This document shows positions 4,947 through 56,169 of a DNA stretch of 64,000 nucleotides, in pieces. The translations under genes and the position numbers were made by a program. This stretch comes from a bacterium. GTDB lineage: Bacteria > Hinthialibacterota > Hinthialibacteria > Hinthialibacterales > Hinthialibacteraceae. The notes beneath the pieces were generated by a model, which did not search any database, was not told the DNA's origin, and was given only the letters and a program-made list of their open reading frames with translations. The stretch is from NCBI GenBank assembly GCA_963662285.2, contig CAXXMV010000006.1:448001-512000 (forward strand). The letters run 5' to 3'. Each line of letters starts with the position of its first letter. Position 1 is the stretch's first letter.

Positions 4947-6494
4947 ATGTTTAGCAAATCGATTGTATTTAGAACCTGCTTTGTATATCTACCACTTTTC
5001 GCTGTATGTATTTGTTCAAATAGTGTGACTTATGCACAGGAAAGAACAGAGATTACTGCCTATATTCCGCATATCCCGGATATAGCTCCTCCTGTCATAG
5101 ATGGCTACCTGGATGATGAGGCCTGGATTTATGCGACCCAGGGAAATGCTACAGCCAATGCATCAGATTGGTATGTCCGGATCAATCCGGATTTCGATGT
5201 CGATGATCCGGTTCAGACAGGAGCGATAGCTGGTCAGAATAATGGAGATCGACCAGAAGATGATGCAGATGCTTCTTTCCGCGTATGGACATTGTATGAC
5301 GATGAATATCTCTATGTCGCAGTGGCAACGCAGGACTGGGATTACGTCAACCATCTACCTCCAGACAGCGTTAACGAAGCAACATGGTACGAAGATTCCG
5401 TGGAAATCTTTGTGGATGGTGATTTCAGCCGGACTCCGGGAAGTGTAAACAGCCTTCCTGATCCATCTGCAGAATATGCGACAGGCGGACAGTTCGTCAT
5501 AACTTCCGCTGGAGCGATTCGCCACGCAGAAGCAGGAAATCCCGTTTTTGGTGATACGCCGGAAGCGGATTGGTTCGCATCCGTGTTTGATAATGACAAC
5601 GCTGACGGATCGAATTATGAATTCCGCATAAAACTTTCAAAAATCGGAAATCCTGTTTTTGGTAGTAAAATCGGATTTAATGTCGCAATGAATGACGCCG
5701 ACGATTCCGGTTCTTCCAGCGCCGATTATCAAATTCTCTGGACCGGTGCAAGTCATCAAGAAGATACCTATGGGGCGCTCGAATTCGGTAGACGTTCCAT
5801 TACTGCTCCATTGATAACAGACGCAGTTGTAATCGACGGTAAAATGGACGAGTCGATCTGGTCCAGCGCTGCAACTGGTAAGGGTGGTATGCCTTATGGA
5901 CCATATACTGGCAGCACAGTGCCCAAAGACCTGGCCGATCTATCTTTCGACTTTTGGGTCATGCATGATGCGGACTATCTCTATGTCGCCTTTGATGTAA
6001 AAGACGAAGAGGTATTCGCGGACAGCACCGATCCGGAATCAGGAAACGGTAGCACATGGTATGATGACTCGGTGGAAATATTTATCGATGGAAATCACAC
6101 TCATACTTCTGGGCGAACCGGGCAGACCGGATTCCATTTTGGCGGCCAGCTCGTAATTACCACCAACCAATCCTGGCGGGATAACGAAGCCTCCGAAGTT
6201 GAGGTAGTCTTCTATGGTCCTGAAGATGATCGTGATTGGTATGCTCTGACATCATTGACCGATACTGGTTATATTGCCGAATATCGCGTCAAGAAGAGTT
6301 CCCTGTTCGATGATCCAGCCAGGGATGTGATCGGTTTCGACATCTGCGTCAATGAAGACGATTCGGATCCGCCCAACGAAAAGGATGCGGGTCAACAGAT
6401 TACCTGGAATGGTCATTGTCATAATGAAGCGTCTTATGGCGATCTGATTCTAGGCGGCCCTGCCACCAATGTGCTGGATTGGGAAGTATATTAA
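4947..6494 (+). CDS. Secreted protein with two tandem CBM9-like (DOMON-type) sugar-binding domains and a V-x-D-W-x-x-Y tail
   Basis: Signal peptide; the block IDG.LD..W / D..YLYVA / WY.DSVEIF.DG / IGF...ND.D occurs twice; very acidic; ends TNVLDWEVY. Confidence 0.85.
   Translation: MFSKSIVFRTCFVYLPLFAVCICSNSVTYAQERTEITAYIPHIPDIAPPVIDGYLDDEAWIYATQGNATANASDWYVRINPDFDVDDPVQTGAIAGQNNGDRPEDDADASFRVWTLYDDEYLYVAVATQDWDYVNHLPPDSVNEATWYEDSVEIFVDGDFSRTPGSVNSLPDPSAEYATGGQFVITSAGAIRHAEAGNPVFGDTPEADWFASVFDNDNADGSNYEFRIKLSKIGNPVFGSKIGFNVAMNDADDSGSSSADYQILWTGASHQEDTYGALEFGRRSITAPLITDAVVIDGKMDESIWSSAATGKGGMPYGPYTGSTVPKDLADLSFDFWVMHDADYLYVAFDVKDEEVFADSTDPESGNGSTWYDDSVEIFIDGNHTHTSGRTGQTGFHFGGQLVITTNQSWRDNEASEVEVVFYGPEDDRDWYALTSLTDTGYIAEYRVKKSSLFDDPARDVIGFDICVNEDDSDPPNEKDAGQQITWNGHCHNEASYGDLILGGPATNVLDWEVY
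6471..6494 (+). other. Putative C-terminal sorting motif VLDWEVY*
   Basis: Last 7 codons of the gene; same pattern ends three other secreted proteins in the window. Confidence 0.7.
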
Positions 6495-6527
6495 CGAGTT
6501 ATGGAATCGTTAATCCATTGAATTACG

Positions 6528-6564
6528 AAGGGCTGGATGAACGCTTGTCCAGCCCTTTTTCTTT
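6528..6564 (+). terminator. Intrinsic terminator
   Basis: AAGGGCTGGA / TCCAGCCCTT stem followed by a T-tract. Confidence 0.75.
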
Positions 6565-6615
6565 ATAAGTGTTATATTCATTAAAAAATTGCAAAATCAT
6601 CATGAGAATCGTAAT

Positions 6616-9441
6616 ATGAAAAAAACCTGGATTATAGTTATCTTGCTCTTTGCTCTGTTTATCACAATAGGAGTGACATGGTTAAATTCCCCTGAAGACT
6701 ATTCAAGAGTGATAGATGAAGCAGGATTAGCGGAAGAGGGATTAGTTGAAGAAGATATCCCTGATGACTTATCTTTAGATGTTGCGGGAATGGAACAATT
6801 ACGCGCTTTGGGTTATGCGGGTGGAACGCATGAAAAACCAGCCCCCCGGCAGGCGATTAGCGTGTTTACTCCCAATACGGGTGATACAGTAATCCCTATA
6901 TCATTTCATCTCAGTGAAAAATCAGTCACGAATCTTTTAACTAATCAAGCTAATCTTCAGCAAGTTGAAATTGCCAGTCAAACACGAATGTCATTGAACG
7001 TTCTGCCTGGAACTGCTGTTTCTTTTCAAGGTCTTGTCAATGAAAAATGTAAATTACTCTTTGGAGCTGGGCAGGTATACGCCAAAATAAAACCCAATTC
7101 CCTTGTTCTCCAGCTGGATATTTTTGACTCCAAGGCCAATCTGCTGCAACAGGAAATCGTATCATCAATCGCGGGAGATTGGGTGGACCGGGTGATTGAT
7201 CTTAACCGTTATTCCGGTGAAACGATTCGGCTGGTATTTTCCGTCCTTTCATTCGATCCCTCCCAGGATCAAAATCCGGTCTCTATCAGCCCTCTGTTAG
7301 TAACCCATCCTGTATCCAATGAATCCAGGCATCCTCATGTGTTTTTTGTCCTGATCGATACGCTGAGATCGGATGCGTTGGGTTGCTATGGTCAGGCAGC
7401 GCCAGTGACTCCCCACCTCGATAAATTGGCGGAAGGAGGAATTCTGGCCGAAAACATGATCGTTCAATCTCCACATACCGAAACATCCATTCCAACAATC
7501 CTTCTAGGCGTTTATCCGCATATTCATGGTCGGATGCTGCGCGATTCAAAACACAATGCCGCTAATCCGGTCTATTTGAAGAAAAATAAATTAAGTGAAG
7601 AACACACCGTTATCTCTGAGGTGTTTCAAAAGGCGGGCTATTTAACCTATGGTTTTTACAATAATATTCTGATTTCTGCTGCGTTCGGATTTCACCGGGG
7701 ATTTTATAACTACACCGATTACGCAGCTGGTAGCGGGATGACCGACCCCTGGGGACGCATTGCCTTGCCCACCGCCCATCTGGGAGTGGAAGAGGCGGTC
7801 AAACTGATTGAACAGGCGCCGGAAGACATCCCTTTATTTGTATTTCTGCACATTCTCGATCCACACAATCCTTACACTCCGCCTGATAAATATAATTTGA
7901 GTATTAAACGAAAGGCTAAAAATATCGATGAAGCTGCCTATCTTGGCGAAGTCGCTTATGTTGATGAACAGGTTGGTAAACTCACTAACGCCTTAAAACG
8001 ATTGGGGCTTTATAAGAATAGCATTGTTGTGGTAACCAGTGATCATGGAGAGGAATTCGTGAATCCGCATGGGCGTCCCATCGGACATGGCCGCACCATG
8101 TTCCAGACCTTGTTGCACGTTCCATTTATATGCAGCTACCCGGAAATGGAATTACCCGGATATCGAATAAAGTCCATCGTGGAATCTGTCGATGTATTTC
8201 CCACAATACTCGATTTAGCGGGACTTAGTCTGGATCAGAAACTATCGGGGGAAAGTTTTGTTCCTTTAATGAAAAATATAGAGGCGACTTTGGATAAAAA
8301 AGAAGCCATCGCCGAAGGAATCCGTAAAGGCGAAGAGCGTAAGTGCCTAATTATAGATCAGTATAAACTCATTTATTATCGGGATTCAGACCGCACGGTT
8401 TTATACAATCTGCAAAACGATCCAAACGAATTGGAAGATATCACAGACCAAAACCAGGCGTTAGTTGCCACGATGAAAAAACGCATCCTCGAACGGTTCC
8501 AGATCGAGGAACCGGTTATTCATCCTCTGGAAGTCGTTTCTCTTGGGCAGGATGGAATGGATTTGGTCCATACATTCACATCAGGTTCCTCCTGGTGGCA
8601 GCCCGGTATATCCGACATCCATTTGAACGTTAAACCGTTTTCTGATGAGATTCAAAGGATTGATATCTGGGCTGACGACCGTCTGCATGGCAACCGTAAT
8701 TACTCCTTCGGATGGCGATGGCCTCCCATGGGAGAAAATCCGGTCGCTGTTCAATCCAGCAACGATTCTTTAGACTTGTATTTCGAAGCGTCTGAAAGTT
8801 TTCAAGCGTCTGATGTTTTTGTGAGGATAGTGGATAAGCAAGATAAAATCCATCTTGGATCGTTCCAGGGTGGAGATGTTACCGTTGTACCGCAAAAAGT
8901 GAAAAACAACTATCCGGCTTTAGTTTATTGGGATTTCGAGCGAGCCGAACCGTTTGAACGCTGGCGCATCGGTCAAGGGGGAACTTTGAACCGGATAACC
9001 AAAGGCGCCGGAAAAAGCAATACCATAATGCAGTTCGAATCGAATGCCCGTTCCGGTTCTTTTCGGGCTTATAACGTCATCCCCAAAGTTCCTGCGGGAC
9101 GTCGTTTAGCCGTTTCTTTTGAAATGGTCATCGAATCCGGTGGGGTGAAAATTGAACTTATTCATCCCCGGTCCGCCAAAAATATTGCGTCCCATACGTT
9201 TTCTATCGACGATTCGGGAACTCATATTACAAAAATAGCGCCGCAAACCATGAAAATCTGTGGATTAACTGGCGTCAGCGTGGCTCAGGAAGAACTATTG
9301 TTTTTGATATCTAATTATTCAACACAAAGTAAGCCGACCCGTGTTTTGTTTAATGATATTAAAGCCTATCTGTATCCGGTTGAATTAGAAACAGAGTCAC
9401 AATCTTCAATCAGTACCGAATCTCTTGATCATTCCTTGTAG
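6616..9441 (+). CDS. Membrane-anchored sulfatase-like (alkaline phosphatase superfamily) hydrolase/transferase with extra domains
   Basis: N-terminal TM helix; LIDTLRSDALGCYG, QSPHTETS, DPHNPY, TSDHGEEF, GHG, LYNLQNDPNE. ATG at 6616 (MKKTW) preferred over TTG 6589. Confidence 0.8.
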   Translation: MKKTWIIVILLFALFITIGVTWLNSPEDYSRVIDEAGLAEEGLVEEDIPDDLSLDVAGMEQLRALGYAGGTHEKPAPRQAISVFTPNTGDTVIPISFHLSEKSVTNLLTNQANLQQVEIASQTRMSLNVLPGTAVSFQGLVNEKCKLLFGAGQVYAKIKPNSLVLQLDIFDSKANLLQQEIVSSIAGDWVDRVIDLNRYSGETIRLVFSVLSFDPSQDQNPVSISPLLVTHPVSNESRHPHVFFVLIDTLRSDALGCYGQAAPVTPHLDKLAEGGILAENMIVQSPHTETSIPTILLGVYPHIHGRMLRDSKHNAANPVYLKKNKLSEEHTVISEVFQKAGYLTYGFYNNILISAAFGFHRGFYNYTDYAAGSGMTDPWGRIALPTAHLGVEEAVKLIEQAPEDIPLFVFLHILDPHNPYTPPDKYNLSIKRKAKNIDEAAYLGEVAYVDEQVGKLTNALKRLGLYKNSIVVVTSDHGEEFVNPHGRPIGHGRTMFQTLLHVPFICSYPEMELPGYRIKSIVESVDVFPTILDLAGLSLDQKLSGESFVPLMKNIEATLDKKEAIAEGIRKGEERKCLIIDQYKLIYYRDSDRTVLYNLQNDPNELEDITDQNQALVATMKKRILERFQIEEPVIHPLEVVSLGQDGMDLVHTFTSGSSWWQPGISDIHLNVKPFSDEIQRIDIWADDRLHGNRNYSFGWRWPPMGENPVAVQSSNDSLDLYFEASESFQASDVFVRIVDKQDKIHLGSFQGGDVTVVPQKVKNNYPALVYWDFERAEPFERWRIGQGGTLNRITKGAGKSNTIMQFESNARSGSFRAYNVIPKVPAGRRLAVSFEMVIESGGVKIELIHPRSAKNIASHTFSIDDSGTHITKIAPQTMKICGLTGVSVAQEELLFLISNYSTQSKPTRVLFNDIKAYLYPVELETESQSSISTESLDHSL

Positions 9442-9720
9442 ATACGGCGCCCCGCATGTGTAAGTATTTTTGAAAATCACTCTGGACTGTTTTTTCATAA
9501 TAGCCGGAAGGTTCGTATTAGTACGGTCTTAATGTTGTGAAACATTGAATTCTAATAACCATAAGGCTACCTTATCAAGAGAACATTCCGCAATTCACAT
9601 GCTTGTGACACAGTAAGCCAGGTTTTCCGGGAGGGACTGGACGCTATTGCTCTGCATGATGGTTTGATAGCGCCATGGATGTAATTTATATTCATATTTT
9701 CTACCAAAGGATGATTTATA

Positions 9721-10497
9721 ATGAAAACGTTACCCCTGATTATTTCCTTGATTCTCTTATCTAGCCCCTGTTTCGCACAGAGACCACCCCAAGACCCGAT
9801 GTCGCAGACCCGTTACACTCCGGAAAGTATGGGGTACAAACTTTTTTGGGAAGATCAATTCAATGGGGACAAACTGGATAATGAAAAATGGGAGGTCAGA
9901 GGCGTAGGGCCGCGGGCCTTGGGTTTTGTTTCCCCTGAAGCCGTTAAAGTCGAAGACGGATTCCTGAAATTGTCTGCTTTCGTCAAAGATGACAAAATTC
10001 AGATAAGCGCCGTTGGAACTCAAAATCATTTCATGACCAAATACGGCTACTTCGAGTGCAGGGCGCAGCTGCAAAAGTCGCCGGGCGTCTGGGCGGCGTT
10101 TTGGATTCAATCAACCGACATTGCCAAAGGCGAAGATCCTGCAAAATTCGGCGCTGAAATAGATATTATGGAATTCTTCAAAAAACTTGGAACCGACATT
10201 GTTTCGCATAATGTTCATTGGGCCTACGGACCAAATCAGCAGACCACTCATGGTATGCAAAGTTACCTAAAGGGCGTAAGCCAAGGCTTTCATACCTTTG
10301 CCTTGGAGTGGACGCCTGAAAAATATGTCTTCTTTATCGATGGATATAAGTTCTATGAGGTAACCACTGCAATATCTCATATTGAAGAATACATGATCCT
10401 CAGTATGGAACTTCCCTCGAAAAAGGAAGAACTGAAGAATGCCGTATTTCCTGACGTGTTTATTGTTGATTATGTGAAAGTTTACAAAAAGAAATAA
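9721..10497 (+). CDS. Glycoside hydrolase family 16, secreted
   Basis: Signal peptide; LFWEDQFNG, YGYFECRA, WAAFW, catalytic EIDIME, FHTFALEW, VDYVKVY. Confidence 0.9.
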   Translation: MKTLPLIISLILLSSPCFAQRPPQDPMSQTRYTPESMGYKLFWEDQFNGDKLDNEKWEVRGVGPRALGFVSPEAVKVEDGFLKLSAFVKDDKIQISAVGTQNHFMTKYGYFECRAQLQKSPGVWAAFWIQSTDIAKGEDPAKFGAEIDIMEFFKKLGTDIVSHNVHWAYGPNQQTTHGMQSYLKGVSQGFHTFALEWTPEKYVFFIDGYKFYEVTTAISHIEEYMILSMELPSKKEELKNAVFPDVFIVDYVKVYKKK

Positions 10498-10548
10498 GAT
10501 CAATTCCAGGCTAGAGTTCATAGTATTATACATTTATATGCGCTACTT

Positions 10549-10577
10549 AAAAAAAGCCAGTTTAGTCTGGCTTTTTT
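10549..10577. terminator. Bidirectional intrinsic terminator
   Basis: AAAAAAAGCCAG-TTTAGT-CTGGCTTTTTT. Confidence 0.7.
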
Positions 10578-11130: not shown

Positions 11131-11182
11131 CATATTAACTTTTGTTTCAGCAAAAAGCCATTTGACAGTAGCAGTAACCATT

Positions 11183-11605: not shown

Positions 11606-11652
11606 AAGTGATAAATTATCCGCATGTAGGTGGACTAAAAAGCATGTAGCAC

Positions 11653-13124: not shown

Positions 13125-13148
13125 TTAATAAGTCATCCAATCAGAAAC
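13125..13148 (-). other. Putative C-terminal sorting motif VSDWMTY*
   Basis: Last 7 codons of the gene; matches V-x-[DG]-W-x-x-[YF]. Confidence 0.7.
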
Positions 13149-14576
13149 GCCGACTTGAACAGAACCCTGCGACCCTATATAACCGCCATTACTTCCAGCA
13201 GTCAGTACTGGCGAGTTTTCCTGTAATTGGAATCCTGCACGGCTGAATGAGTCTGGATCAGTGGTTGGGTTAACATACAGTGGATCGACGGATAGTTCAT
13301 TATCCAATGTGACATTAAGAAATGCTTCGAATTCAGTTAGTACGTTGCAATAGGATGCGATAAGCGAATCCTCTTCGAAATAATCAAAATCATCGAGTTT
13401 ACCATTGAGCATCCCGGCCACTCCCACCACATTGGTATTGCTTACATTGATTTTTCTATCTTGATCGATAGGCGGTTCGAGACGTAACTCGAAGGATCCC
13501 GGCGCGTCGACCAGGTTCTGATAAAAATCGCAATGTTCGATGGTGACGATGGCTTCTTCACCATTCTCCTGCACAAATAGACCTTCCTGCAAACAACCAG
13601 CGATGATGCAGTTGGTCATATTGACATTACCATGCTTGACCCTGAGGCCGATGTTTCCCGAACCGATGATGGCAACATCGTCAAACTCAGCGAGGATAGG
13701 AAATTCTCCTGTCGCTTGTTTATCGATGTTCACATTACCACGGTTGCCTAAGAAAGAGCAGCGTCGGAAAACGATCTTGCCGCCGCCCAATGTTGCGGGA
13801 TTCTGACAATTGGTAATTATAGTGTCTTCGATCAGATGCCCCGCGCCGCTCGCTGTCCGGGCGGGATCGGCGGGAGAGGGCAGGGCGGCGCAATCCATCT
13901 CGATCCCGTTACCATTGCAATTCTGAATAGTGCATCCCCGTAGGGTGATGGAAGGATCGGTGGGAACGCCCTCAGTGGCTTTGATGACTTGGACGCCATA
14001 GTGGCATTCTTCAACCAGGCAATTATCCATGACGATGCCGACAGGCGCCAGAGTCGCTCCATATATGATGATGCCGAAATTAAATCCTTCGTAGGCCGTT
14101 CCTTCTCCACCGGCGCCCCGGATAGTGCAGTTGCGCAGCGTGGTATCATTGCAATCCATCAAAGCTATGGCGCTGGAGATATCGTTGGCGGATACTTCGG
14201 TGGTTTGATTCTCGAAGATGATGCCTTCAAACACAGCCCCCACGCACCCTGACGCAAGAACGCCAAGACGGTCAATTCCTGGGATGCCCAAGTCTCCCAG
14301 GCGTTCTGCAGTGTTTACCGCACGGATAGTAGGCGTTTGACCTTCAGCGGCTTTCAGGGTGAACTGAGCCGCAAAACCAGCCCCGGCGCCAGCCGTAAGG
14401 TCTTCTTCATAAACAGCGCTATCCAGGATGATAATCTCATCGCCATTGGCGGAGGTGGCGACGGCAATCTGGATGCTGTTGACATCACCGGATCCGTCCT
14501 GCGCTACAGTAATCGTCCCGGCGAAAACAGGTGATGCCATAACGATGAGCAGCATAATTACAAATGTAATTCGCAT
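13125..14576 (-). CDS. Secreted right-handed beta-helix (pectin-lyase fold) protein with a V-x-D-W-x-x-Y tail
   Basis: Signal peptide ending VFA; ITVAQDGSGD...IQ.A; repeated NCTI/NCLV/GCTI/NCII rungs; FQLQENSP; ends VGVSDWMTY. Confidence 0.8.
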   Translation of the reverse strand: MRITFVIMLLIVMASPVFAGTITVAQDGSGDVNSIQIAVATSANGDEIIILDSAVYEEDLTAGAGAGFAAQFTLKAAEGQTPTIRAVNTAERLGDLGIPGIDRLGVLASGCVGAVFEGIIFENQTTEVSANDISSAIALMDCNDTTLRNCTIRGAGGEGTAYEGFNFGIIIYGATLAPVGIVMDNCLVEECHYGVQVIKATEGVPTDPSITLRGCTIQNCNGNGIEMDCAALPSPADPARTASGAGHLIEDTIITNCQNPATLGGGKIVFRRCSFLGNRGNVNIDKQATGEFPILAEFDDVAIIGSGNIGLRVKHGNVNMTNCIIAGCLQEGLFVQENGEEAIVTIEHCDFYQNLVDAPGSFELRLEPPIDQDRKINVSNTNVVGVAGMLNGKLDDFDYFEEDSLIASYCNVLTEFEAFLNVTLDNELSVDPLYVNPTTDPDSFSRAGFQLQENSPVLTAGSNGGYIGSQGSVQVGVSDWMTY

Positions 14577-18447: not shown

Positions 18448-18485
18448 CGCCAAGGGCAAGAGCGCATTGCGCTCAGCTCTTGATC
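18448..18485 (+). repeat. Palindromic repeat family C, copy 1
   Basis: CGCCAAGGGCAAGAGCGCATTGCGCTCAGCTCTTGATC; other copies at 19311 and 22631. Confidence 0.8.
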
Positions 18486-19170
18486 AACCGCCATCAAACC
18501 CACCGCCGGAACGATACGAGATATTACCAGCGCTTCTCAATCCATTTGAAGATTGATAAGGAATCCCGCGGAATCCGCTTTGGACGATGCTGCCATCCGG
18601 CCCGCTTCCAATCAGCGCAAATTCCCCCCGGGTTAAAGGTCTGACAGAACCGGGAAAGCCCTGGTTGCTTGGTTGATAGGCGTCAATATTATGATTATGG
18701 GGCGACCATGCATCAGTGCAGCGGGGATCATGATCGACATAGGTATAGGTATCAAGTTGGCCGCTCCATGTTTCACTAGCGGCTTGTTTTTTTGGCTCCC
18801 GTAAAAATGGGTCTTGGGGAATCGATGCTATGTAGTTAGTCGGCGTGGTCAGCGGCGCCATAACATCACGCATTAACCGGGTGCCTTTCTGAGGATTAGC
18901 GATTTTACTGAAATATTTATTCAGAAGCCCCAGGCATATCTCACCATCATCATCCCAGATATCAATCAGCAGGAATCCACGGTCAATCCTGAACGACTCG
19001 ATGGCGGTTCCCAGGTTCTTGGTATCAGCCTGTGACCGGGCCACTTTGGCGCGGGTTTGCGCGTTAAGAAAATTGGGCACGGCAATCGCCGCCAGAATGC
19101 CGATAATCGCAACTACAATTAACAATTCTATAAGCGTAAATGCTTTGTGGTTGTAATAATTTTTATTCAT
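18484..19170 (-). CDS. Prepilin-type N-terminal cleavage/methylation domain protein (T2SS pseudopilin G-like)
   Basis: KAFTLIELLIVVAIIGILAAIAVPNFLNAQTRAKV; LTTPTNYIASIPQDPF; GSGPDG; YQSSNGLRSAGNI. Confidence 0.9.
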   Translation of the reverse strand: MNKNYYNHKAFTLIELLIVVAIIGILAAIAVPNFLNAQTRAKVARSQADTKNLGTAIESFRIDRGFLLIDIWDDDGEICLGLLNKYFSKIANPQKGTRLMRDVMAPLTTPTNYIASIPQDPFLREPKKQAASETWSGQLDTYTYVDHDPRCTDAWSPHNHNIDAYQPSNQGFPGSVRPLTRGEFALIGSGPDGSIVQSGFRGIPYQSSNGLRSAGNISYRSGGGFDGG

Positions 19171-19413: not shown

Positions 19414-19437
19414 TTAATAAATAGACCAGTCCATTAC
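19414..19437 (-). other. Putative C-terminal sorting motif VMDWSIY*
   Basis: Last 7 codons of the gene; matches V-x-[DG]-W-x-x-[YF]. Confidence 0.7.
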
Positions 19438-21060
19438 TCCTACGGCAATATCGAAATTATCCGAAAAAACGACTTGCCCATCGACCAGAACTTCGACGTT
19501 ATCAAATTGAGATGTTATACCGATTTCGGTGCTGCCCGCCAGACCGGGATATCCAGTGCGTTCGCTGTTGGATGCATTATCCCAAAGCGGTAGTTCGAAA
19601 ATGTCGGCGCCGCCTTTTTCGACGATGCTGCCAGTCACAAGAGTACCTTCACCAATCAGGGTCATTGTGTACCATTGATTGAGTTCCCAGGCGTAATCGC
19701 TTCTCGAAGCCCATTCGACATGATCGTTGAGCATATCCACGCTGTTCACGTCGTCATGAAACATGAGGTTCAGCGCCATCTCACTGGAACCACTGGCATC
19801 CGGTTCGGGATTGCAGCGAATCATAACTCCTGACCGGGAAAGGTCATCGTCCACCCAGCTGGTCATCATTACATCGGCGCGAATGGTATAGTCTTGACCG
19901 CCAAAATCCTTCTCAATCCAAATGTGTTTCGGATCGAGACCCGAATCGGCGTAATGCTTCAAAACTCCATCGATGACCGCCCAGACGCCGTTCGCGCCGA
20001 TCTTCCAATCCGGTCCCAGACCGATTGCATGTTTTAACATGACATCCTTTAAATTGATGGATTCGCTTCCCTTGGTTACGCTGCCACAGAGTAGGCTGAT
20101 GATGGGAGCGTCTGCAGAAGGTATCTCCAGATCATAACTCATTTCCGCTGAACCGGTCTCATTACCAATATCCCAGATAATTTTATTATCGGTGATTTGG
20201 GCGTCGCCAACCGTGGTCACGATATTGGTCGCTGTCAAACCTGCGGGAATATTTTCTTCCACTGTTGTCGGGGTTGTGGGGTCAATCAACCCATCCAGAT
20301 TGATTTTGATGCCGGAAACGGTAGTTCCACCTTTATATATAATTTGCGGAACGGTGCGTTGCGCCAAAAAGGGAATCACCGTCAGTTTGACATCAGGAAA
20401 GTAACCGATAGTCGAGGCGTCCCTCTCGTTAGAGGTTACGGCCAATCCGACGTAAACCGGATCGGATAGATTATCCAGCACTCGCACCTCGTGCAGAATC
20501 GGCTGACCCGTATCGTAATCAATGTAATAACTCATTAAAGTGTTGCCCAGGCGGACCAGCTGGGCGCCGTCCTGTATATCGAAGGGGATCAATTCATGCC
20601 GCCAGTGATAGTTGGATTTACGGTCCAGAACCCCGCCCGCCGTCTCGCGCCATTCAGTATCCAATTGACCGTCGTTACGTACGAACATATCGAAATGCAC
20701 GGCGTCCGTGTCGAGAGAATCGCGAATCATCAAGGCCACTTTCACTTCGTTGCTTGAACTCTCGAAGGGATCGACCTCCAGCCTTGCGGAAATCGTAAAC
20801 GGCCCGCTCATTTCCTTGTAAACAAAATGAAAGTTGTCCGTTGCATCGCCGATTCCCGCTCCGCTGCCGGTTACTACATACTCTGCGTTTTGGAAAACGG
20901 CTGTTCCGGGAACGCCAACATCTCCTATGTCTATGTTATTTTCGAAAATTCCTACTTGTGAGAATCCGGGAATTGCCGCGAACAGAAACGCTGTTACAAC
21001 AACACAGCCCAAAGAAATCATTCTATTTCTTCTCATTGTCTTATCCCCTTTTACAAGCAA
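19414..21060 (-). CDS. Secreted multidomain beta-sandwich (ConA/LamG-, DUF1080-like) protein with a V-x-D-W-x-x-Y tail
   Basis: Signal peptide; GIFENNIDIGDVG...GSGAGI...DNFHFVY...LMIRDSL...VYVGLAVTS; second module ends QFDNVEV; ends VGVMDWSIY. Start may be ATG 21036. Confidence 0.75.
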   Translation of the reverse strand: MLVKGDKTMRRNRMISLGCVVVTAFLFAAIPGFSQVGIFENNIDIGDVGVPGTAVFQNAEYVVTGSGAGIGDATDNFHFVYKEMSGPFTISARLEVDPFESSSNEVKVALMIRDSLDTDAVHFDMFVRNDGQLDTEWRETAGGVLDRKSNYHWRHELIPFDIQDGAQLVRLGNTLMSYYIDYDTGQPILHEVRVLDNLSDPVYVGLAVTSNERDASTIGYFPDVKLTVIPFLAQRTVPQIIYKGGTTVSGIKINLDGLIDPTTPTTVEENIPAGLTATNIVTTVGDAQITDNKIIWDIGNETGSAEMSYDLEIPSADAPIISLLCGSVTKGSESINLKDVMLKHAIGLGPDWKIGANGVWAVIDGVLKHYADSGLDPKHIWIEKDFGGQDYTIRADVMMTSWVDDDLSRSGVMIRCNPEPDASGSSEMALNLMFHDDVNSVDMLNDHVEWASRSDYAWELNQWYTMTLIGEGTLVTGSIVEKGGADIFELPLWDNASNSERTGYPGLAGSTEIGITSQFDNVEVLVDGQVVFSDNFDIAVGVMDWSIY

Positions 21061-49548: not shown

Positions 49549-51394
49549 TTGAGCACGCCAAACCGACTTTTTCAAATATCATATCGAGCCAATTACTGTA
49601 GGTCCATTGCCGGGCGATTCTTTTTTGGCCCTGTTCTCTGATCCGGTCGGCTTCATCGATGTGTTCTAAATAATAGGTCACCTGCTCCGCCAGTTCATTA
49701 ACGCTTTGATAGCGTATCATCTCTTTGCCGGGTTCGAGGAACTGGGAAAAATCGCCGTCGCTGATTAAGAAGCCCCCCATACCGGCGACATTGAAGTACC
49801 GCATGTTGGGGCTGGTTACATTGCCTACCGAATGGATGTTGACGAAGATGTGTCCCTCATTAAACAGAGCCGGTTCTTCAGCAATAGGCAGGTATCTCTG
49901 ATAACAATTCTTCAGCGCAGAATCTTCAGCGTTATCAGCCCAGTTGCCAAATAGCGCCAGCCCCTTATCAGCGATGCATTCCAATAATATTCGTCGCCGT
50001 GCTGCGGTGCATTGGCAGAGCAGGTAGCGGAAAATATCATAATACTCCTGCTCGTTTTCAACCTGCGGCATTGGATTGGCTTCCAGATAATCAAACAGAT
50101 TCAGTTGAAGATCGAAATTACTCAGTTCCTGTTCGGCATGAAGAATGGCGTTCCACAGCTGGGAGCGTTTCAACATTTTCGTGCGAAATCTCTGTTCGTC
50201 TTCTTTTGGTAAACCCAAAGGATTGCCCACGAAAACGATGGGATAACGGCGTGATGTTTGAACTGGTTGGTCTTCGGAGTAATTGGCCATGATCGGAACG
50301 AAAAATGGATTGGGCGCCCCGCGTTCAATATAAGCGGGCATCAGTTTGCGCTCGGCGATGGCGCTGTACTCATTCTGATAATAGCGGCGGTCGTAATAAG
50401 CGAAGTTAGACGCCGCCTGCACCCAGGGAACGCCCAGCGCTTCAAAAATCTCCTGTCCCACAATCTGGGGAGCATGATAGGCGTAACTGATAATCAAATC
50501 GGGTTGAAAATCTTTGAGGTTTGCTAAAAGCGACCGGATATAAAAGCGGCGGTAATCCGCTTCATGCATATCAAAGCGGTGACCTTGCAACGCAACCGTT
50601 TTTACATCTACGCCCCGTTGTCGCAAAGCCTTTTCTATTGAGCGGATATGCAGCCCCTGAGGAAACTCTCCCCAACACTCAAACAGCATAACCCGCTCAA
50701 CCGTCTTCTCATTTTTCTGCGCTGCATTCTGGCGTAAGCACTCAATTACTTCAGCGCTTTTTTGATGTTCTTTATCTGATCCGGCGTTGTATTGATCCAG
50801 GAAATTATGATATTTAGCCTGCTGATCTTCTGGATTGGAAAAATAAGCGTAGACTTTTTCTCTTCCCCATAGATTATATTGATTGATGCTTTGCAAAACA
50901 GTTGCAATATCATCTTCACCAATGGCAAGATGATATCTTCCACTAGCTAGAGCGTTGCGCATATCGAAGACTAACATGGCTGAGCGCAGCCGGGCGGCGC
51001 TCGGTTCAATCACCAGAACCGTAGTTCGGGGATTCTTCAACAGGGCGTCGGCGGCGATGCGTAAGGCGTAGCCCGTAGATGTTCCCAGAAATATGACTAA
51101 TCCAGCGTCTCTGGAAATCATCTTCAAACGAGTTTGTATTGCCGCCAGTTCCTGTCGGGGATGGTTTTCGCCGAAAATCCACCGGCTGGGATCAGACTGC
51201 GTTTTACAGCGTACAAATCCACCAAATTCCTGCAAGAGCAATTCTTCCGCTCCCTGGTTATTTTTGATCTTCTCAAAAAATTCCGCATCAAAAGCAGACA
51301 GATATTGGAGATTATCTTTCAGCAAAGGGGTTACAACCGCCCTGAGGGGAATCCAGGGTGGTTGTGATTGGGTTGTATCATTGTGATTCTGCAT
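49496..51394 (-). CDS. Glycosyltransferase family protein (CgeB/Glyco_trans_1_2-like C-terminal domain)
   Basis: IVFVG, LALFGNW, IFVNIH...PNMRYFNVAGMGGFLISD, YYLEH.DE...I...G; N-terminal FLGTSTGY...IEPS Rossmann-like domain. Confidence 0.75.
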   Translation of the reverse strand: MQNHNDTTQSQPPWIPLRAVVTPLLKDNLQYLSAFDAEFFEKIKNNQGAEELLLQEFGGFVRCKTQSDPSRWIFGENHPRQELAAIQTRLKMISRDAGLVIFLGTSTGYALRIAADALLKNPRTTVLVIEPSAARLRSAMLVFDMRNALASGRYHLAIGEDDIATVLQSINQYNLWGREKVYAYFSNPEDQQAKYHNFLDQYNAGSDKEHQKSAEVIECLRQNAAQKNEKTVERVMLFECWGEFPQGLHIRSIEKALRQRGVDVKTVALQGHRFDMHEADYRRFYIRSLLANLKDFQPDLIISYAYHAPQIVGQEIFEALGVPWVQAASNFAYYDRRYYQNEYSAIAERKLMPAYIERGAPNPFFVPIMANYSEDQPVQTSRRYPIVFVGNPLGLPKEDEQRFRTKMLKRSQLWNAILHAEQELSNFDLQLNLFDYLEANPMPQVENEQEYYDIFRYLLCQCTAARRRILLECIADKGLALFGNWADNAEDSALKNCYQRYLPIAEEPALFNEGHIFVNIHSVGNVTSPNMRYFNVAGMGGFLISDGDFSQFLEPGKEMIRYQSVNELAEQVTYYLEHIDEADRIREQGQKRIARQWTYSNWLDMIFEKVGLACSSMVGRASPTHHKPPVVN

Positions 51395-51430
51395 AAAAGC
51401 CTATTTATAAATCCATCCCGAAATCATAGA

Positions 51431-52822
51431 TTAGCCTAAAGTCCAGGGTTCACGGTACTCGTAATGCAGTAGTTTATTTGCATCATCATTATTGGTGATG
51501 CGCTCATTTTCGGCGTCCCATTCGATGCGGCATTTGGTCGCCAAAGCGATGTTGGCTAAATGGGCGAAAGTGGTTGAGCGATGCCCGGTTTCAATGTCGC
51601 AGTTACAGCGCTTTCTCGACTTGACGCAATCCAGGAAATTACGCACATGCTGGTCAGTAAGGTCTTGATCCATCCGTTTTACTTCAACTGCTTTGATTGA
51701 TGGACTCTTTTTTTGGAACTGACCGTTGTCCGAAGGAATAATCTTATATCCGCTGCCTTCTGAACCGGTATATAGGTTGCCCAGTGTTCCACGGAATTCA
51801 ACCTCGCCTTGTTCAATAGCGGTTCCCCCGCATGCTTCATACTGCCCGAATATCAGAAGGGTTTTGCAGGGCATTTCAAATATCACCTCCATGGTATCGG
51901 GAACAGTGCGGTCATCATCAATAGCGAACCGTCCGCCATGGGCTGAGACCGATATAGGCGCTTGCTGATCAAGCGCCCAGCGCATGGCGTCCAGGTAGTG
52001 AACTCCCCAGTTGGCCATTTGCGACGAATATGATTCCCACCAGCGGAACTTATAGGGCGCGATATTCCTACGGCTGTCCCGATCAGCCCGTGGACCAAGC
52101 CACATGTCCCAATCAAGACCCTCTACCGGTTTAGAATCAGGGTATTTGCCGATGCCGTCCTGATACATATTGCTGATGCGGTAGGCGCGGGCGACGGTTA
52201 CTTTACCGATGGCGTCAGCGCCGATCAGTTCAGCGGTTTTTTTATAAAGATTAGACGAGCGGCGGTGCAGACCAACCTGGTTGACTCTTCTGCTGCGTTG
52301 GGCGGCCTCGGCCATCTTACGTCCTTCATGGATGGTTATCGATAAAGGTTTTTCAACATAAACGTCTTTACCCGCTTCAAAGGCCATGATAGCCATGATG
52401 GCATGCCAATGATCCGGCGTGGCGATGCATACCGCATCGATATCCTTGCGTTCCAAGACGCGGCGAAAATCGTTATAACGTTCCACCGATGCATCAAACT
52501 TTTCATCTAATTTGGGAATTCGACCACCAAGCGACTTGAGTAATTCCTTGTCCACTTTCGCTAAGTTTCGTTGCCGAAATGGTTCATAAACATCGCATAA
52601 TGCCGCGACGTTCATATCCGGTTGTTTCATGAAACTATGCAGAAGTTGAGTGCCCCGGTTGCCAACGCCTATGAAGCCTACTTTAACAGTATCGTTAGGT
52701 TTAGTGGAAGAAAGAACAGCGGGAGCTTTTGCCGCATGCAATCCAAACGCCGCGCCAGTTGCAGTAAGCGTAGACTTTCGAAGGAACTCTCGTCTCTGTG
52801 TCTTATCATTACCATTGGTCAT
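51431..52822 (-). CDS. Gfo/Idh/MocA family oxidoreductase, Tat-exported
   Basis: QRREFL signal; GFIGVGNRG, ATPDHWH, YVEKP, NWGVHYLD. Confidence 0.92.
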   Translation of the reverse strand: MTNGNDKTQRREFLRKSTLTATGAAFGLHAAKAPAVLSSTKPNDTVKVGFIGVGNRGTQLLHSFMKQPDMNVAALCDVYEPFRQRNLAKVDKELLKSLGGRIPKLDEKFDASVERYNDFRRVLERKDIDAVCIATPDHWHAIMAIMAFEAGKDVYVEKPLSITIHEGRKMAEAAQRSRRVNQVGLHRRSSNLYKKTAELIGADAIGKVTVARAYRISNMYQDGIGKYPDSKPVEGLDWDMWLGPRADRDSRRNIAPYKFRWWESYSSQMANWGVHYLDAMRWALDQQAPISVSAHGGRFAIDDDRTVPDTMEVIFEMPCKTLLIFGQYEACGGTAIEQGEVEFRGTLGNLYTGSEGSGYKIIPSDNGQFQKKSPSIKAVEVKRMDQDLTDQHVRNFLDCVKSRKRCNCDIETGHRSTTFAHLANIALATKCRIEWDAENERITNNDDANKLLHYEYREPWTLG

Positions 52823-53056
52823 GACGTAAAACCCCCTATAGGATTGTATTGATTCTTATTATCGGATTGATTATACGCATTAAAAACCACAACCTCTATA
52901 GTGATTAAGCAAAGTTTTTGACTTTTTAACGTTTCTCCATATATTATGAAATGAGTCTATATTAGTTTTATGAGTGTGATTATAATTCCACCTTAGCGGT
53001 TTTGGATGAGGATTTTTATGTTATATTTTTCTTGAAATTTAATATCAGCGGGTGCT

Positions 53057-54427
53057 ATGTTTGTAATGAATATAAAAAAGAGTTGCATTTATCTTGGAAT
53101 AATTGTGTTGCTTTCGGTTTTTCTCAAAATCTTGATCTTTGGCATTACGGTTGTAGGTGATGAGGAATTGATATCAGGAGATATGCCCGGTTACTTATTA
53201 TTGGCTGACTCCATTTATCAAAAGCAATCGTTCGGGTCTTTTGAGGATGGGCAATTTCATCCCAATATCAGACGAACTCCCGGATATCCGGTTTTTATTG
53301 CGGTTCATAAACTCTTTTTCGGGAATTCACTGATTCCACTGTTTATTACACAAATATTGATGTCATCTTTATTGGCTGTTTTTGTGTATAGCATCACTAG
53401 AAAGATGACCGGTTCTACCATGATTGCTTTCCTTGGCGCAATCATGATTGCGTTAGAGCCGACCTACATTCACTTTTGTTTGTTACCCCTGACCGACATG
53501 TTTTTCACCTTTGTGCTGGTAGTCTCTGTTGCGTCATTTATCAAGTGGAAAGAATCCTCGGCAACCTGGTGGTTGTGTCTTTCGGCGTTTTTGCTATCTG
53601 TGTCCGTTCTTACCCGGCCTATTGCAATATTTTTATTTATTGTTTTTATTCCTTTTATATGCTTTTACAATGCCAATTGGAAATCCAGTGCAGTGAACTG
53701 TCTGATTTGGATCATAATTAGCGTGGCGCCAGTTGCGGGATGGATTGTACGAAATGCGGTTGTAGTTGGAGTTCCCCAATTATCTTCTATATCGTCAGTG
53801 AATATGTTGTTCTACCGGGGAGCTGGGGTGAAATCAAAATTAGAAGGAATACCCTGGTCTCAGGCAAAAAAAAATTTACAAGATGAAGCCATAGAATATA
53901 AAGAAATCCATAATCCAACTCAAAAGGAATACTTGGATTATCTATCGAGTCAAGGAATTAAATTGATTTTGAATCATCCTGTGTTGTATGCCAGAGTTCA
54001 TGCGGAAGGAGTGGCTCAAATGCTTTTTGGCCCCGCTTTGCGCTATGTTTTTTGGAGGTTAGGATTCCCGCAAGAAGGTTTTGGCATATTAACCGCTTTA
54101 AATAACGGGGATTTATCAGAAGGGATTAAAGCCTTAAAAAACAAAGGATTATTCTCTGTTTTTTTGGGAGGCATTGAATTGGCGTATTGTCTGGCGTTGT
54201 TTTTTTTAGTCGGTTTCGGTTTATTTTATTATCCCCGGTTCGGCTGGTGTTTTCTATTGGTATGTATAATATCGGCCTATTTCATAGTTCTATCAGGAGG
54301 GCCGGAAGCCGGAGCGCGTTTCAGGATGCCTCTATTACCTTTTTGGATTCCATTAGCGTTAAGTGGTTTGATGATTATATGTGAAAAATTGGGCTGTGTT
54401 CTAAATGACAAGGATAGATATAAATAA
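53057..54427 (+). CDS. ArnT/PMT-like (GT-C fold) membrane glycosyltransferase
   Basis: D..GY, RTPGYPVF, LTDMFF, LTRP, WIVRN, ARFRMPLLP; many TM helices. Confidence 0.8.
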   Translation: MFVMNIKKSCIYLGIIVLLSVFLKILIFGITVVGDEELISGDMPGYLLLADSIYQKQSFGSFEDGQFHPNIRRTPGYPVFIAVHKLFFGNSLIPLFITQILMSSLLAVFVYSITRKMTGSTMIAFLGAIMIALEPTYIHFCLLPLTDMFFTFVLVVSVASFIKWKESSATWWLCLSAFLLSVSVLTRPIAIFLFIVFIPFICFYNANWKSSAVNCLIWIIISVAPVAGWIVRNAVVVGVPQLSSISSVNMLFYRGAGVKSKLEGIPWSQAKKNLQDEAIEYKEIHNPTQKEYLDYLSSQGIKLILNHPVLYARVHAEGVAQMLFGPALRYVFWRLGFPQEGFGILTALNNGDLSEGIKALKNKGLFSVFLGGIELAYCLALFFLVGFGLFYYPRFGWCFLLVCIISAYFIVLSGGPEAGARFRMPLLPFWIPLALSGLMIICEKLGCVLNDKDRYK

Positions 54428-54447
54428 TATAGCAATAGAAAACTTTG

Positions 54448-54471
54448 GGGGGCTGATATATGTCAGCCCCC
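54448..54471. terminator. Hairpin between convergent genes (probable terminator)
   Basis: GGGGGCTGA-TATATG-TCAGCCCCC. Confidence 0.55.
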
Positions 54472-54519
54472 CTACCTAATATAGAATCTTAAAAATAAAT
54501 GCTATTTCCGTGCTGGATA

Positions 54520-54543
54520 TTAAAATAATTCCCATCCGGCAAC
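54520..54543 (-). other. Putative C-terminal sorting motif VAGWELF*
   Basis: Last 7 codons of the gene; variant of V-x-D-W-x-x-Y. Confidence 0.6.
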
Positions 54544-56169
54544 CGGAGTGCTGGCGAATATTGCGCCAAGACCCTGTCCTGGTGAACTAGGATCAAGCTG
54601 GAATGGATTATCTGAATCTGGATCGGTATTAAGGAAAACCGGGGTTTCACGAATTACTGTATCCAGTCCAAGAACCAAGTCTTCATATCCGCAATATAAG
54701 CGGGCGCCTAGAACATTATCTTTGTTGTCAGTTCCATCAATCAAAACATCTTCCCAGACGCGTGAATCCTCATTGGCGATTTCACCGACCAGGCAGTTAT
54801 CAACATTGAGAACCGCGACATCGGAGGTAGCGTTATTGAATGCCGCACACCAAATAGAACTACCGCTGAAATTAGAATAGAGGCCAGTTTCCCAAGCTGG
54901 ATATAATCCATTTTCATCCAGAAATTCGCTGCCTTCGAGGGGCAGGCCTGATTCATCAACCGCAGGAGGAGAATTGTATCCGATGAGATCGAAAATGCTG
55001 TTGGTAACCGTAAGCTTGGTATCTTCCGTACCTCCGCCTGAACCTATCGAGGCGCCGCTTAAGCATTTAATAAAGGTGCAGTGATCCACGGTCATTTGAC
55101 CGGCGTTATGGTTATTCACCCCGCCATAGTAGGCGCGTTGAGCAAATGAACTTCCAGCGTTAACGAAAATGCAATGAGTAACATTGGAGGTGCATGTGTG
55201 TCCGTCTTGCGTCTGGATTGCGATAGCTGAGTTTTCGCCGTCGCCATTATTGCCTTGGTTAGTTCGCGTGAATACGCAGTGATCAGCATTGATGTTGGCG
55301 CCACGGCCTCGCGCAGCGAATTTCCCCATAGCATCGAAACGGCAATAATTGAAATCGAGAGTTAAACTGCCTGGTCCGCTACCACGGTTTGAGGGGAACA
55401 CGCCGGCATCGTATGAATGATGGAAATAGCAATTTTCAAATGTGACGGTAATATCTTCCCCATAAGTGAAATGATCCATGCGGGCAAGAGTTCCGGCTTG
55501 TCCATTCTCATTGCTAAGCAGATAGCCCTGGCTGTCGAGAGACGGTTCCACATCTGCATCAGTAGCCACGCCTGAAAATTCACAATTACGAATGATGCAG
55601 CCATCGCAATTACGTCCGCCTTCTAATGCAGATCCATTAGCGCCTTCTTGAGCGAAGAATACAAGGGTATTGGGATAATTTATCTGACGTTCGGTTCCAG
55701 CAGCCGGGCGGAACAGGCAATTGTCGATAACAACATCATCCGCCATTACGAAAAGCGCTCCGACGCCAACAGAGGTAATGTCCATATCAGGATTGCCTTC
55801 AATGATCAAGTTTGAAAGCACTGAATTGTCAACGAAAAGGCCGAAACCGGCGCCTCTATCCACGTCACCGCGATGGACTTCCAGATAGGCTTTCGCTTCA
55901 CTTGGAGTGATAACAGGACGCGCATCGCCATCTTTGTCAGATGTCAGAGTAACTGCCGCGCCGCCTCTATTATCAGGATCGCCGATTTCAAGATTTTCAA
56001 CATAGGTGCTGCTGTCGGTGATAGTTATAACATCGGCGCCGCTGTCAATCGCCGCTTGAATTGTTGTGTAAGCTCCATTGGCGCCTGATTGATTCACTTC
56101 AACTGAAACCGACCAGCCGCATAATGCGAACACACTAGATAAAACTAATACACACAAAATCTTTTTCAT
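54520..56169 (-). CDS. Secreted right-handed beta-helix protein with a V-x-G-W-x-x-F tail (paralog of 13125..14576)
   Basis: Signal peptide; YTTIQAAID...ITITDSSTYVENL; NCLF/NCEF/NCYF/HCVF/HCTF rungs; FQLDPSSP; ends TPVAGWELF. Confidence 0.8.
   Translation of the reverse strand: MKKILCVLVLSSVFALCGWSVSVEVNQSGANGAYTTIQAAIDSGADVITITDSSTYVENLEIGDPDNRGGAAVTLTSDKDGDARPVITPSEAKAYLEVHRGDVDRGAGFGLFVDNSVLSNLIIEGNPDMDITSVGVGALFVMADDVVIDNCLFRPAAGTERQINYPNTLVFFAQEGANGSALEGGRNCDGCIIRNCEFSGVATDADVEPSLDSQGYLLSNENGQAGTLARMDHFTYGEDITVTFENCYFHHSYDAGVFPSNRGSGPGSLTLDFNYCRFDAMGKFAARGRGANINADHCVFTRTNQGNNGDGENSAIAIQTQDGHTCTSNVTHCIFVNAGSSFAQRAYYGGVNNHNAGQMTVDHCTFIKCLSGASIGSGGGTEDTKLTVTNSIFDLIGYNSPPAVDESGLPLEGSEFLDENGLYPAWETGLYSNFSGSSIWCAAFNNATSDVAVLNVDNCLVGEIANEDSRVWEDVLIDGTDNKDNVLGARLYCGYEDLVLGLDTVIRETPVFLNTDPDSDNPFQLDPSSPGQGLGAIFASTPVAGWELF

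Follow-up and report, generated by a model that had tools for sequence, protein, structure and literature searches.

To our knowledge, the C-terminal sorting signals described in bacteria all belong to one of two kinds: whole domains, and signatures that a helix holds at a membrane. The tripartite signals (LPXTG/sortase, PEP-CTERM/exosortase, GlyGly-CTERM/rhombosortase and MYXO-CTERM/myxosortase) consist of a signature motif that is followed by a hydrophobic transmembrane helix and then by a basic cluster. Here we analyse a short C-terminal tail that was found at the end of four genes in a stretch of 64,000 nucleotides from a bacterium of the phylum Hinthialibacterota (assembly GCA_963662285.2, contig CAXXMV010000006.1, positions 448,001 to 512,000; hereafter the window, G000:C6:448001-512000 in our numbering). 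The tail resembles the tripartite signals in being a short C-terminal signature that occurs on many unrelated signal-peptide proteins per genome, and in its clade-restricted distribution. It differs from them in having neither a transmembrane helix nor a basic cluster, and its motif is the extreme C-terminus. We conclude that the tail is probably a new kind of address label that matches no described sorting signal.

The four tagged genes of the window encode different proteins. Gene 1 (P0001, 4947..6494, + strand) encodes a signal peptide and two CBM9_1 domains and ends in ATNVLDWEVY (the codons of the last 10 residues before the stop codon, located by translation, are at 6462..6491, +). Gene 2 (P0002, 13125..14576, - strand) encodes a signal peptide and a right-handed beta-helix and ends in VGVSDWMTY (tail codons by translation at 13128..13157, -). 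Gene 3 (P0003, 19414..21060, - strand) encodes a ConA-like/DUF1080-type protein that ends in VGVMDWSIY (tail codons by translation at 19417..19446, -); its true start is probably 39 nt downstream, at 21021, because its database twin has 535 aa. Gene 4 (P0004, 54520..56169, - strand) encodes a signal peptide but no Pfam family, and ends in STPVAGWELF (tail codons by translation at 54523..54552, -). With a 12-position weight matrix, the four tails score 23.9, 23.1, 24.2 and 21.7 bits, respectively.

An earlier reading of the window, made from the sequence alone (the sequence-only reading), had described the tails VLDWEVY, VSDWMTY, VMDWSIY and VAGWELF right before the stop codon, and all four translations agree with it. 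It had also stated that the other proteins of the window lack the tail; indeed, only 4 of the 41 window open reading frames (ORFs) reach 21.7-24.2 bits, whereas the remaining 37 score -4.2 bits or lower. The mature regions are Asp/Glu-rich in all four proteins, as had been noted, with D+E at 13.1-18.6%, K+R at 4.5-5.8% and a net charge of -40 to -66. The proposed architectures were recovered in part: Pfam finds CBM9_1 twice in P0001 and Beta_helix in P0002, and gives no match for P0003 or P0004, although PF06439 or PF07081 is present in homologues of P0003.

To describe the tail genome-wide, we used the whole assembly (7.29 Mb, 8 contigs, 44% G+C). Its 11,847 six-frame ORFs of at least 80 aa were reduced to 5,422 by dropping those that lie mostly under a longer one; this is a crude six-frame set, made with no gene caller. 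The regular expression V.[DGEN]W..[YF] matched 67 C-termini, compared to an expectation of 0.10, and 39 internal positions in 2,140,331 residues. Iterating the weight matrix gave 150 of 5,422 ORFs at 12 bits or more, and a random internal window, one per ORF, never reached 4 bits. The tail pattern is thus far above chance in the whole proteome, and the set is larger than first noted. The consensus is [P/G]-T-x-V-x-[D/N/E]-W-x-[L/I/M]-[Y/F/H]-COOH. Counted from the end (n=150), position -9 is T in 102 and V in 27 proteins, -7 is V in 114 and I in 29, -5 is D in 51, N in 32 and E in 22, -4 is W in 142, -3 is S in 52, M in 32 and E in 29, -2 is L in 89 and I in 32, and -1 is Y in 94, F in 27 and H in 21. 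Only three residues follow the Trp, both in the four window proteins and in the consensus of the 150, and there is no helix and no basic cluster.

The position of the tail is strict. At 12 bits, 150 tails are flush with the C-terminus, 25 are followed by one extra residue and one by two. When all 2,075,267 non-terminal positions were scanned, 28 matches reached at least 14 bits; 17 of these lie one residue before the end, with the extra residue being mostly Glu or Asp, and one lies two residues before the end. The other 10 matches are truly internal, all at least 62 residues from the end and none between 3 and 61 residues, and are at chance level.

Signal peptides were called with heuristic tests (lenient and strict) and not with a trained predictor. 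The sequence-only reading had suggested signal peptides on the tagged proteins, and the enrichment is found genome-wide: 146 of 150 tagged ORFs pass the lenient test compared to 2,386 of 5,262 untagged ones. When a later hydrophobic segment is excluded, the numbers are 136/150 and 1,714/5,262 (odds ratio 20), and in the strict test 111/149 and 1,009/5,152 (odds ratio 12, p = 1.5e-45). A lipobox-like motif is present in just 6 of the 150 tagged proteins. The tagged proteins are also poor in basic residues, with 2.7% K, 3.2% R and 8.6% D compared to 5.6%, 4.6% and 6.9% in the other exported proteins (K+R 5.9% versus 10.2%). Thus, the tail exists as a tag that is restricted to the C-terminus and to exported proteins.

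The carriers of the tail are otherwise diverse. With the tail removed, the 150 proteins fall into 80 single-linkage BLAST groups, one of which is a multi-domain group of 47 members. When only the 80 residues ahead of the tail are grouped, 108 groups result, the biggest with 8 members, and no larger shared C-terminal domain is found among the 150 carriers by this grouping. Pfam was run on 63 of the 150 carriers, i.e. the four window proteins and 59 proteins from fetched loci. The matches include binding domains (CBM9_1, CBM_11, Laminin_G_3, Peripla_BP_6), enzymes (the subtilase Peptidase_S8, Beta-lactamase, CotH with LTD, GH42) and other folds (Beta_helix, multihaem cytochrome, WD40, FG-GAP, DUF11); 30 of the 63 have no match at all. 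The tail is independent of the fold that it follows.

One possible objection is that the tail is simply the last core strand of each domain. In an AlphaFold model of P0001 (93-row alignment, mean pLDDT 91), the last strand spans residues 498-502, no strand is found in residues 503-515, and pLDDT is 65 over 511-515. The Pfam CBM9 match of P0001 likewise ends at residue 502. A second tagged protein, of 445 aa and with 27 orthologues, is modelled as a beta-propeller (mean pLDDT 89) with its last strand at 427-434 and pLDDT below 50 at residues 440-445. In both models the tail is thus predicted to lie outside the fold, after the last core strand and with falling confidence, and not to be a core strand.

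Next to the fold, the tail occupies a position that other signals can take. We listed 120 homologues of P0001. The tail forms the end of 63 of them, and in two more it is followed by one residue. Three others have a PEP-CTERM-like motif, a helix and an Arg cluster right after the same last CBM9 domain; genuine PEP-CTERM-like architecture is seen in P0059, P0064 and P0069. The tail therefore shares a common slot with the tripartite signals. The remaining 52 homologues end otherwise. Many homologues in the set P0050-P0124, some of them labelled Verrucomicrobiales, have a longer extension that closes with ...F[YF]RV.., and this recurrent extension is possibly another sorting module. For P0003, all 10 close orthologues (73-100% identity) retain the tail, and one of these is Candidatus Hinthialibacter sp. 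by its source. All 27 propeller orthologues have the Trp, whereas the linker is variable.

The distribution of the tail was estimated by searching genomes for the DNA pattern V-x-[DN]-W-x-Φ-[YF]-stop, with the reversed pattern as a control. The Hinthialibacterota-type phylum of the window is represented by 35 genomes of one class. In 32 of them the pattern matches 5-48 times, compared to 0-2 times for the controls. The low-count genomes are G002 (77% complete; 3 matches), G027 (2) and G001 (1). A scan of our whole genome collection gave at least 116 loci. Among the loci listed, 53 come from 20 assemblies that each contribute at least two, and these assemblies are labelled Sumerlaeota/Sumerlaeales (10), Omnitrophota (1) or just 'bacterium' (9). 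A further 47 of the loci listed are single matches in other named taxa; many of these have stop codons just upstream, as is typical of chance matches. Through one Sumerlaeota-labelled genome we reached a second phylum of 75 genomes. The number of matches is 5-39 in 33 of them, 3-4 in 9 and 0-2 in 33; the tail-rich and tail-poor groups form blocks along the genome list. In five tail-poor genomes, the search for P0001 homologues gave one weak match only. The tail had been called lineage-specific; we find lineage-specific versions of it, whereas the tail as such spans two GTDB phyla.

One such version carries an additional Glu. This +Glu form matches 27 times in genome G049 and 41 times in G050, and neither the plain form nor the controls match in either of them, so that the 'absence' of the tail in a genome depends on the pattern that is used. 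A proteome-wide +Glu version fits co-evolution with one reader. A concerted switch of this kind was not found in the window's phylum, where the +Glu form is a minority form everywhere (0-7 matches).

We compared the tail to known sorting signals. In NCBIfam, no sorting-signal model matched the four full window proteins at E<=1, the last 45 residues of 28 of the 150 tagged proteins at E<=10, or 57 full-length tagged proteins at E<=0.001. Two sub-threshold matches among the 28 are unrelated; one of them is a 'choice-of-anchor Q' domain at 15 bits with a cut-off of 25. Matches to 'TafC fimbrial protein' on three LamG-type carriers are also sub-threshold and reflect the LamG fold. In the proteins scanned, the tail thus matches no NCBIfam or Pfam sorting model, in agreement with the sequence-only reading. 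The paper that names Hinthialibacterota uses neither 'C-terminal' nor 'sorting'. A literature search on the C-termini of secreted Sumerlaeota proteins found nothing that resembles this tail, and one on novel C-terminal sorting signals found tripartite systems only, as judged by titles and the beginnings of abstracts.

Among whole-domain signals, the C-terminal domain (CTD) of the type IX secretion system (Por_Secre_tail) resembles the tail in that it marks Sec-exported, often glycan-active cargo; it has hundreds of clients per genome and serves outer-membrane passage and surface attachment. It is, however, a folded domain of ~70-100 residues, whereas the tail carriers share just ~9 residues, and Por_Secre_tail had no match in our NCBIfam searches of tagged proteins. 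The Gram-positive WxL domain is a C-terminal domain of ~160-190 residues with two WxL motifs. A W-x-L triplet occurs in the tail, yet no shared domain precedes it, and no WxL-family Pfam model matches the 63 scanned proteins. The dockerin module is a duplicated calcium-binding segment of ~60-70 residues. Dockerin_1 does not match any of the 63 scanned proteins (of 150), and the 11 weak dockerin matches in the genome are elsewhere than on tagged proteins, save one in a 2,717-aa tagged ORF on contig C1.

Among short signals, the beta-signal of outer-membrane proteins, which is read by BAM and also sensed by the PDZ domain of DegS, likewise closes an exported protein with an aromatic residue and is read in the periplasm. 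The tail carriers are instead soluble multi-domain proteins (CBM, LamG, beta-helix, propeller) and not barrels. Counted from the end, the tail is hydrophobic at positions 1, 2, 4, 7 and 9, whereas the beta-signal has the alternating pattern 1, 3, 5, 7 and 9, and tail positions 3 (S/M/E) and 5 (D/N/E) are polar or acidic. The peroxisomal signal PTS1 (SKL-COOH, read by the tetratricopeptide repeat (TPR) domain of PEX5) and PDZ ligands are minimal free-C-terminus tags that are independent of the cargo fold. Their likeness to the tail is a functional analogy; they are eukaryotic, cytosolic and unrelated in sequence. Substrates of the type II secretion system (T2SS) are similar in being folded proteins that are exported by Sec or Tat (in our case by heuristic signal peptides) where a complete T2SS is encoded, and the present genome has three T2SS-like clusters. 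In the systems CofJ-CofB and TcpF-TcpB, secreted proteins dock on minor pilins of type IVb pili via a terminal peptide. These resemble our case in that an exported protein is linked to a pilin-type partner encoded alongside, but they use an N-terminal peptide and one client. Here the peptide is C-terminal, with ~150 clients and 121 pilin-like paralogues, and the link is a genetic one.

That link was found by clustering the neighbours of the tagged genes, in which the top family consists of prepilin-type proteins of ~200 aa. An N-terminal regular expression recovers 106 members of this family and a profile 121. The family consensus is similar to GspG, the major pseudopilin of the T2SS, and 84,806 relatives were found in a representative library at E<=0.001. 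Tagged genes are adjacent to a pilin-like gene in 21 of 149 cases (14.1%), compared to 65 of 1,009 other exported (6.4%) and 136 of 4,143 remaining genes (3.3%). We then looked at the immediate neighbours of pilin-like genes that share their strand and are no more than 150 nt away. Of the upstream neighbours 10 of 42 carry the tail (binomial p = 1.7e-7 versus 2.8%; p = 0.007 versus the share among exported proteins), and of the downstream neighbours 3 of 40. Tagged and pilin-like genes that overlap or nearly touch also occur as pairs in the second phylum. The tail is hence genetically linked to pilin-like genes, and this link is partial and could be indirect. The pseudopilin system is the sole machinery with a positive genetic link to the tail. 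A complex prediction for a tagged 441-aa protein and its adjoining pilin-like neighbour, based on alignments of our own, is neutral on binding (score 0.01, mark 0.32).

Eight secretin genes are present in the genome, as are three T2SS-like clusters in which genes for G, H, J, K, L and M accompany a secretin. A GspD-type secretin of 975 aa has orthologue-level matches in 32 of the 33 tail-bearing genomes of the window's phylum; the sole miss is G029 (68% complete), and G001 and G027 have paralogue-level matches only. In G028 and G030-G034 (family f6), homologues of this long GspD secretin are part of open frames of 1,636-3,966 aa, suggestive of secretins whose N-domain arrays are very long. Another secretin, at locus L127 (G000:C8:420422-431653), has 1,057 aa with N-terminal TPR repeats and an STN domain, and adjoins a PilM/PilN fusion and two proteins of 530 and 620 aa with cohesin-like modules.

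The 445-aa propeller gives an example of the link to pilin-like genes. Three cobalamin riboswitches are present in the genome: the first precedes a BtuFCD-like importer, the second an NrdD-like gene, and the third (C6:1397253-1397464, outside the window; loci L145/L175) an operon of three genes that extends to 1400505. These encode a 278-aa exported protein ending in ...DNWEAYQE, the tagged propeller ending in ...AVDSWQLY, and a pilin-like protein whose start overlaps the stop of the propeller. Propeller orthologues are found in 33 of the 35 genomes of the window's phylum. A riboswitch is present at 23 of 30 fetched orthologous loci, in one directly ahead of the pilin-like gene, and the pilin-like gene adjoins the propeller at 7 of the 30. 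Neighbours at other propeller loci resemble cobalamin-synthesis genes by sequence.

In Bacteroides, BtuG is a lipoprotein that captures cobalamin on the TonB-dependent BtuB. The present operon is similar in having a riboswitch-controlled, surface-directed beta-propeller that accompanies cobalamin import. It differs in that the propeller has the tail, its neighbour is pilin-like and there is no TonB-dependent receptor in the operon. No such receptor occurs at any of the three cobalamin riboswitches, and only 7 exist in the 7.3 Mb, six of them in tandem at C6:1100838-1113169. The best PDB fold matches of the propeller are sialidase-like and lectin propellers; BtuG is absent from the top 50, so that an identity with BtuG is not supported.

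None of the three outcomes that the sequence-only reading had named as refuting its proposal was observed. Several observations fit a recognition tag that something common to the proteins of a genome reads at the C-terminus: its free-end position, its exported carriers, its independence of the fold, its conservation in two phyla, the switches between versions and the position equivalent to PEP-CTERM. The sequence-only reading had proposed a tag for sorting or surface anchoring that is read by a channel, an enzyme or a scaffold. A role in sorting or anchoring is supported because homologues have PEP-CTERM in the same position, whereas we infer that the tail is read, that its reader belongs to the pseudopilus system, and in which direction the traffic goes. 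We tentatively favour a sorting tag that is linked to the pseudopilus machinery, at somewhat less than an even chance. The tail would then be a short unstructured C-terminal recognition tag, sometimes with one additional acidic residue, after the last folded domain. Most likely, a shared envelope component would read it at or beside the free C-terminus and direct the fate of the protein after Sec export, i.e. passage through the outer membrane or display there. The partner system would most likely be a pseudopilus machinery, similar to the T2SS or type IV pili, with expanded GspG-like paralogues, and tagged binders and enzymes could be handed to or carried by pilin-like fibres. The cobalamin-regulated module of propeller and pilin would stand in the place where a TonB-dependent BtuB would be expected.

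A number of results weigh against a link to the pseudopilus machinery. No reader, channel or enzyme emerged from the profiles and neighbourhoods examined, and the signal peptides rest on our own heuristics instead of a trained predictor. Most tagged genes, 128 of the 149, do not lie next to a pilin-like gene. In the second phylum, only 2 of 21 tagged ORFs at loci chosen by the tag are adjacent to a pilin-like gene, and in a pilin-centred sample 3 of 25 upstream ORFs are tagged, one of them with the +Glu form in G050. Adjacency could also reflect shared loci for polysaccharide use, as sulfatases and oxidoreductases are common neighbours too. All 75 genomes of the second phylum have 10-131 matches to the pilin N-terminal pattern, whether they have the tail or not; an expansion of pilins as such was thus rejected as a correlate of the tail, since it is equally abundant in genomes without the plain tail. 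Riboswitch, propeller and pilin-like gene are all retained in the tail-poor G001, whose propeller ends in ...TTGVPARAWEALR (...AWEALR). The secretins point in the same direction: the tail-richest genomes of the second phylum (G094-G103) have secretin matches of 60-84 bits or, in two, none above the cut-off, and the tail-poor G073, G108 and G048 have long-secretin matches of 172-286 bits. The long multi-N-domain GspD secretin as an exporter thus fits the window's phylum but fails in the second. Phylogenetic profiles had been suggested as a way to find a co-occurring translocon, protease or scaffold; the profiles of PDZ, cohesin and long secretins do not track the tail.

The alternative that survives best is a tag for surface retention, in which the tail docks non-covalently to an envelope component other than a pilin, such as an outer-membrane protein, a cohesin-like scaffold, lipopolysaccharide or an exopolysaccharide; we consider this unlikely. 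The tail occupies the PEP-CTERM slot of homologues, the carriers are mostly glycan binders or hydrolases, and Trp and Tyr are generally typical of sugar or interface contacts. The genome also has 12 cohesin-like modules, of which some lie beside the TPR-secretin and others at a giant-paralogue locus with tagged genes on its flanks. However, a 9-residue peptide would bind glycans weakly, the crossing of the outer membrane would be left unexplained, and the dockerin-like modules of the genome are the ordinary partners of cohesins. Cohesin is present in the tail-poor G043-G048 and G104-G109 and absent in the tail-bearing G035 and G085. Since the Pfam Cohesin profile over the 75 genomes does not follow the tail, we rejected cohesin-like modules as the reader. 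The giant-paralogue locus (G000:C2:1568724-1590589) consists of six tandem secreted paralogues of 735-1,522 aa with cohesin-like modules and has tail-bearing genes on both sides; four of the six end in ...VNDGQIRINLNYPE.

Even more doubtful is a ligand for a periplasmic protease or chaperone with PDZ or TPR domains, which would serve quality control, escort or maturation. The tail would then be akin to the C-termini of outer-membrane proteins that DegS reads, or to the substrates of proteases that process C-termini. The strict C-terminal position and the tolerance of one mostly acidic extra residue suggest a pocket that reads the carboxylate, and possible readers exist in the genome: four HtrA-like proteases, one CtpA-like protease of family S41, RseP, a secreted beta-helix-PDZ protein and the secretin with the N-terminal TPR array. 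Yet these proteases are near-ubiquitous housekeeping families whereas the tail is clade-restricted, and a degradation tag on 3% of the proteome is implausible. PDZ_2 matches number 1-6 in the tail-richest genomes compared to 2-17 in tail-poor ones and thus do not follow the tail, and no GspC-type PDZ protein was found in the T2SS-like clusters; these family-level counts do not favour PDZ proteins as the reader.

We regard it as improbable that the tail is a cleaved sorting signal, i.e. that a transpeptidase removes it and links the protein covalently to a lipid, a glycan or peptidoglycan as known from sortase, exosortase and PorU. The position equivalent to the PEP-CTERM of homologues and the many-to-one logic of ~150 clients per genome would fit such a system. 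However, the tail has neither a transmembrane helix nor a basic cluster by which a membrane enzyme could keep hold of its substrate. No sorting-signal model matches, and conservation extends to the very last position, an unusual feature in a motif for cleavage. The neighbourhoods of tagged genes gave no candidate enzyme, and no sortase-type enzyme is among the recurrent neighbours, although no search was aimed at the exosortase, rhombosortase or sortase families. Finally, a tail with no shared function (whether a structural cap, an accident of composition or a fragment that has spread recently) is very improbable, as its only point in favour is the lack of an identified reader, whereas 67 matches were observed versus 0.1 expected, 80 unrelated families carry the tail, it is kept across two phyla and within orthologue sets with variable linkers, and it lies outside the fold in two models.

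The sorting tag with a link to the pseudopilus machinery can be extended to a bolder version, which we think is rather unlikely: the tail might be the universal docking peptide of a TonB-independent, pilus-driven capture system. In such a system, ~150 cargoes, different binders and enzymes, would be loaded on fibres of more than 100 GspG-like pilin paralogues that leave via secretins, and retraction would bring nutrients (cobalamin, glycans) into the periplasm. If true, pilus capture would explain why TonB-dependent receptors are scarce and why pilins are expanded in Hinthialibacterota, Sumerlaeota and perhaps Planctomycetes. For Planctomycetes, pili-like fibres that bind dextran have been described, with a suggested role in uptake (PMC5394234).

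If the sorting tag is real, a nine-residue free-end tag on Sec-exported soluble proteins would be a new class. It would mark ~3% of all proteins in two phyla of polysaccharide degraders about which little is known, and it offers a simple sequence rule to predict surface-bound or secreted proteins of uncultivated bacteria. The tail peptide could furthermore be a handle for catching its receptor. The link to pilins and a riboswitch makes two questions testable, namely the role of the hundreds of pilin-like paralogues in these and related phyla, and the uptake of large nutrients with few TonB-dependent transporters.

Lastly, we describe further genes of the window. A GspG-like pseudopilin paralogue (18484..19170, - strand) lies downstream of tagged gene 3 with a gap of 244 nt; it has N_methyl and IV_pilin_GFxxxE matches and is a member of the family of 121 paralogues. 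The 3' part of another GspG-like paralogue is at 1..593 (+ strand; the gene starts 46 nt before the window, C6_447955_448593) and is followed by an untagged ORF of 483 aa (616..2067). Tagged gene 4 adjoins a gene for a PMT_2-type (GT-C) glycosyltransferase (53057-54427, +), and a second PMT_2-type (GT-C) gene, at L001:10511-13072, adjoins a gene for a DegS-like protease. A 950-aa sulfatase (6589-9441, +) has ~250 residues ahead of the Pfam Sulfatase domain, and its TTG start may have been called too far upstream. HZS_alpha, the middle domain of the hydrazine-synthase alpha subunit, occurs in two exported proteins of ~700-770 aa (window 2309-4417, -, and L126:10676-12988), whose host is an organism with no known anammox.

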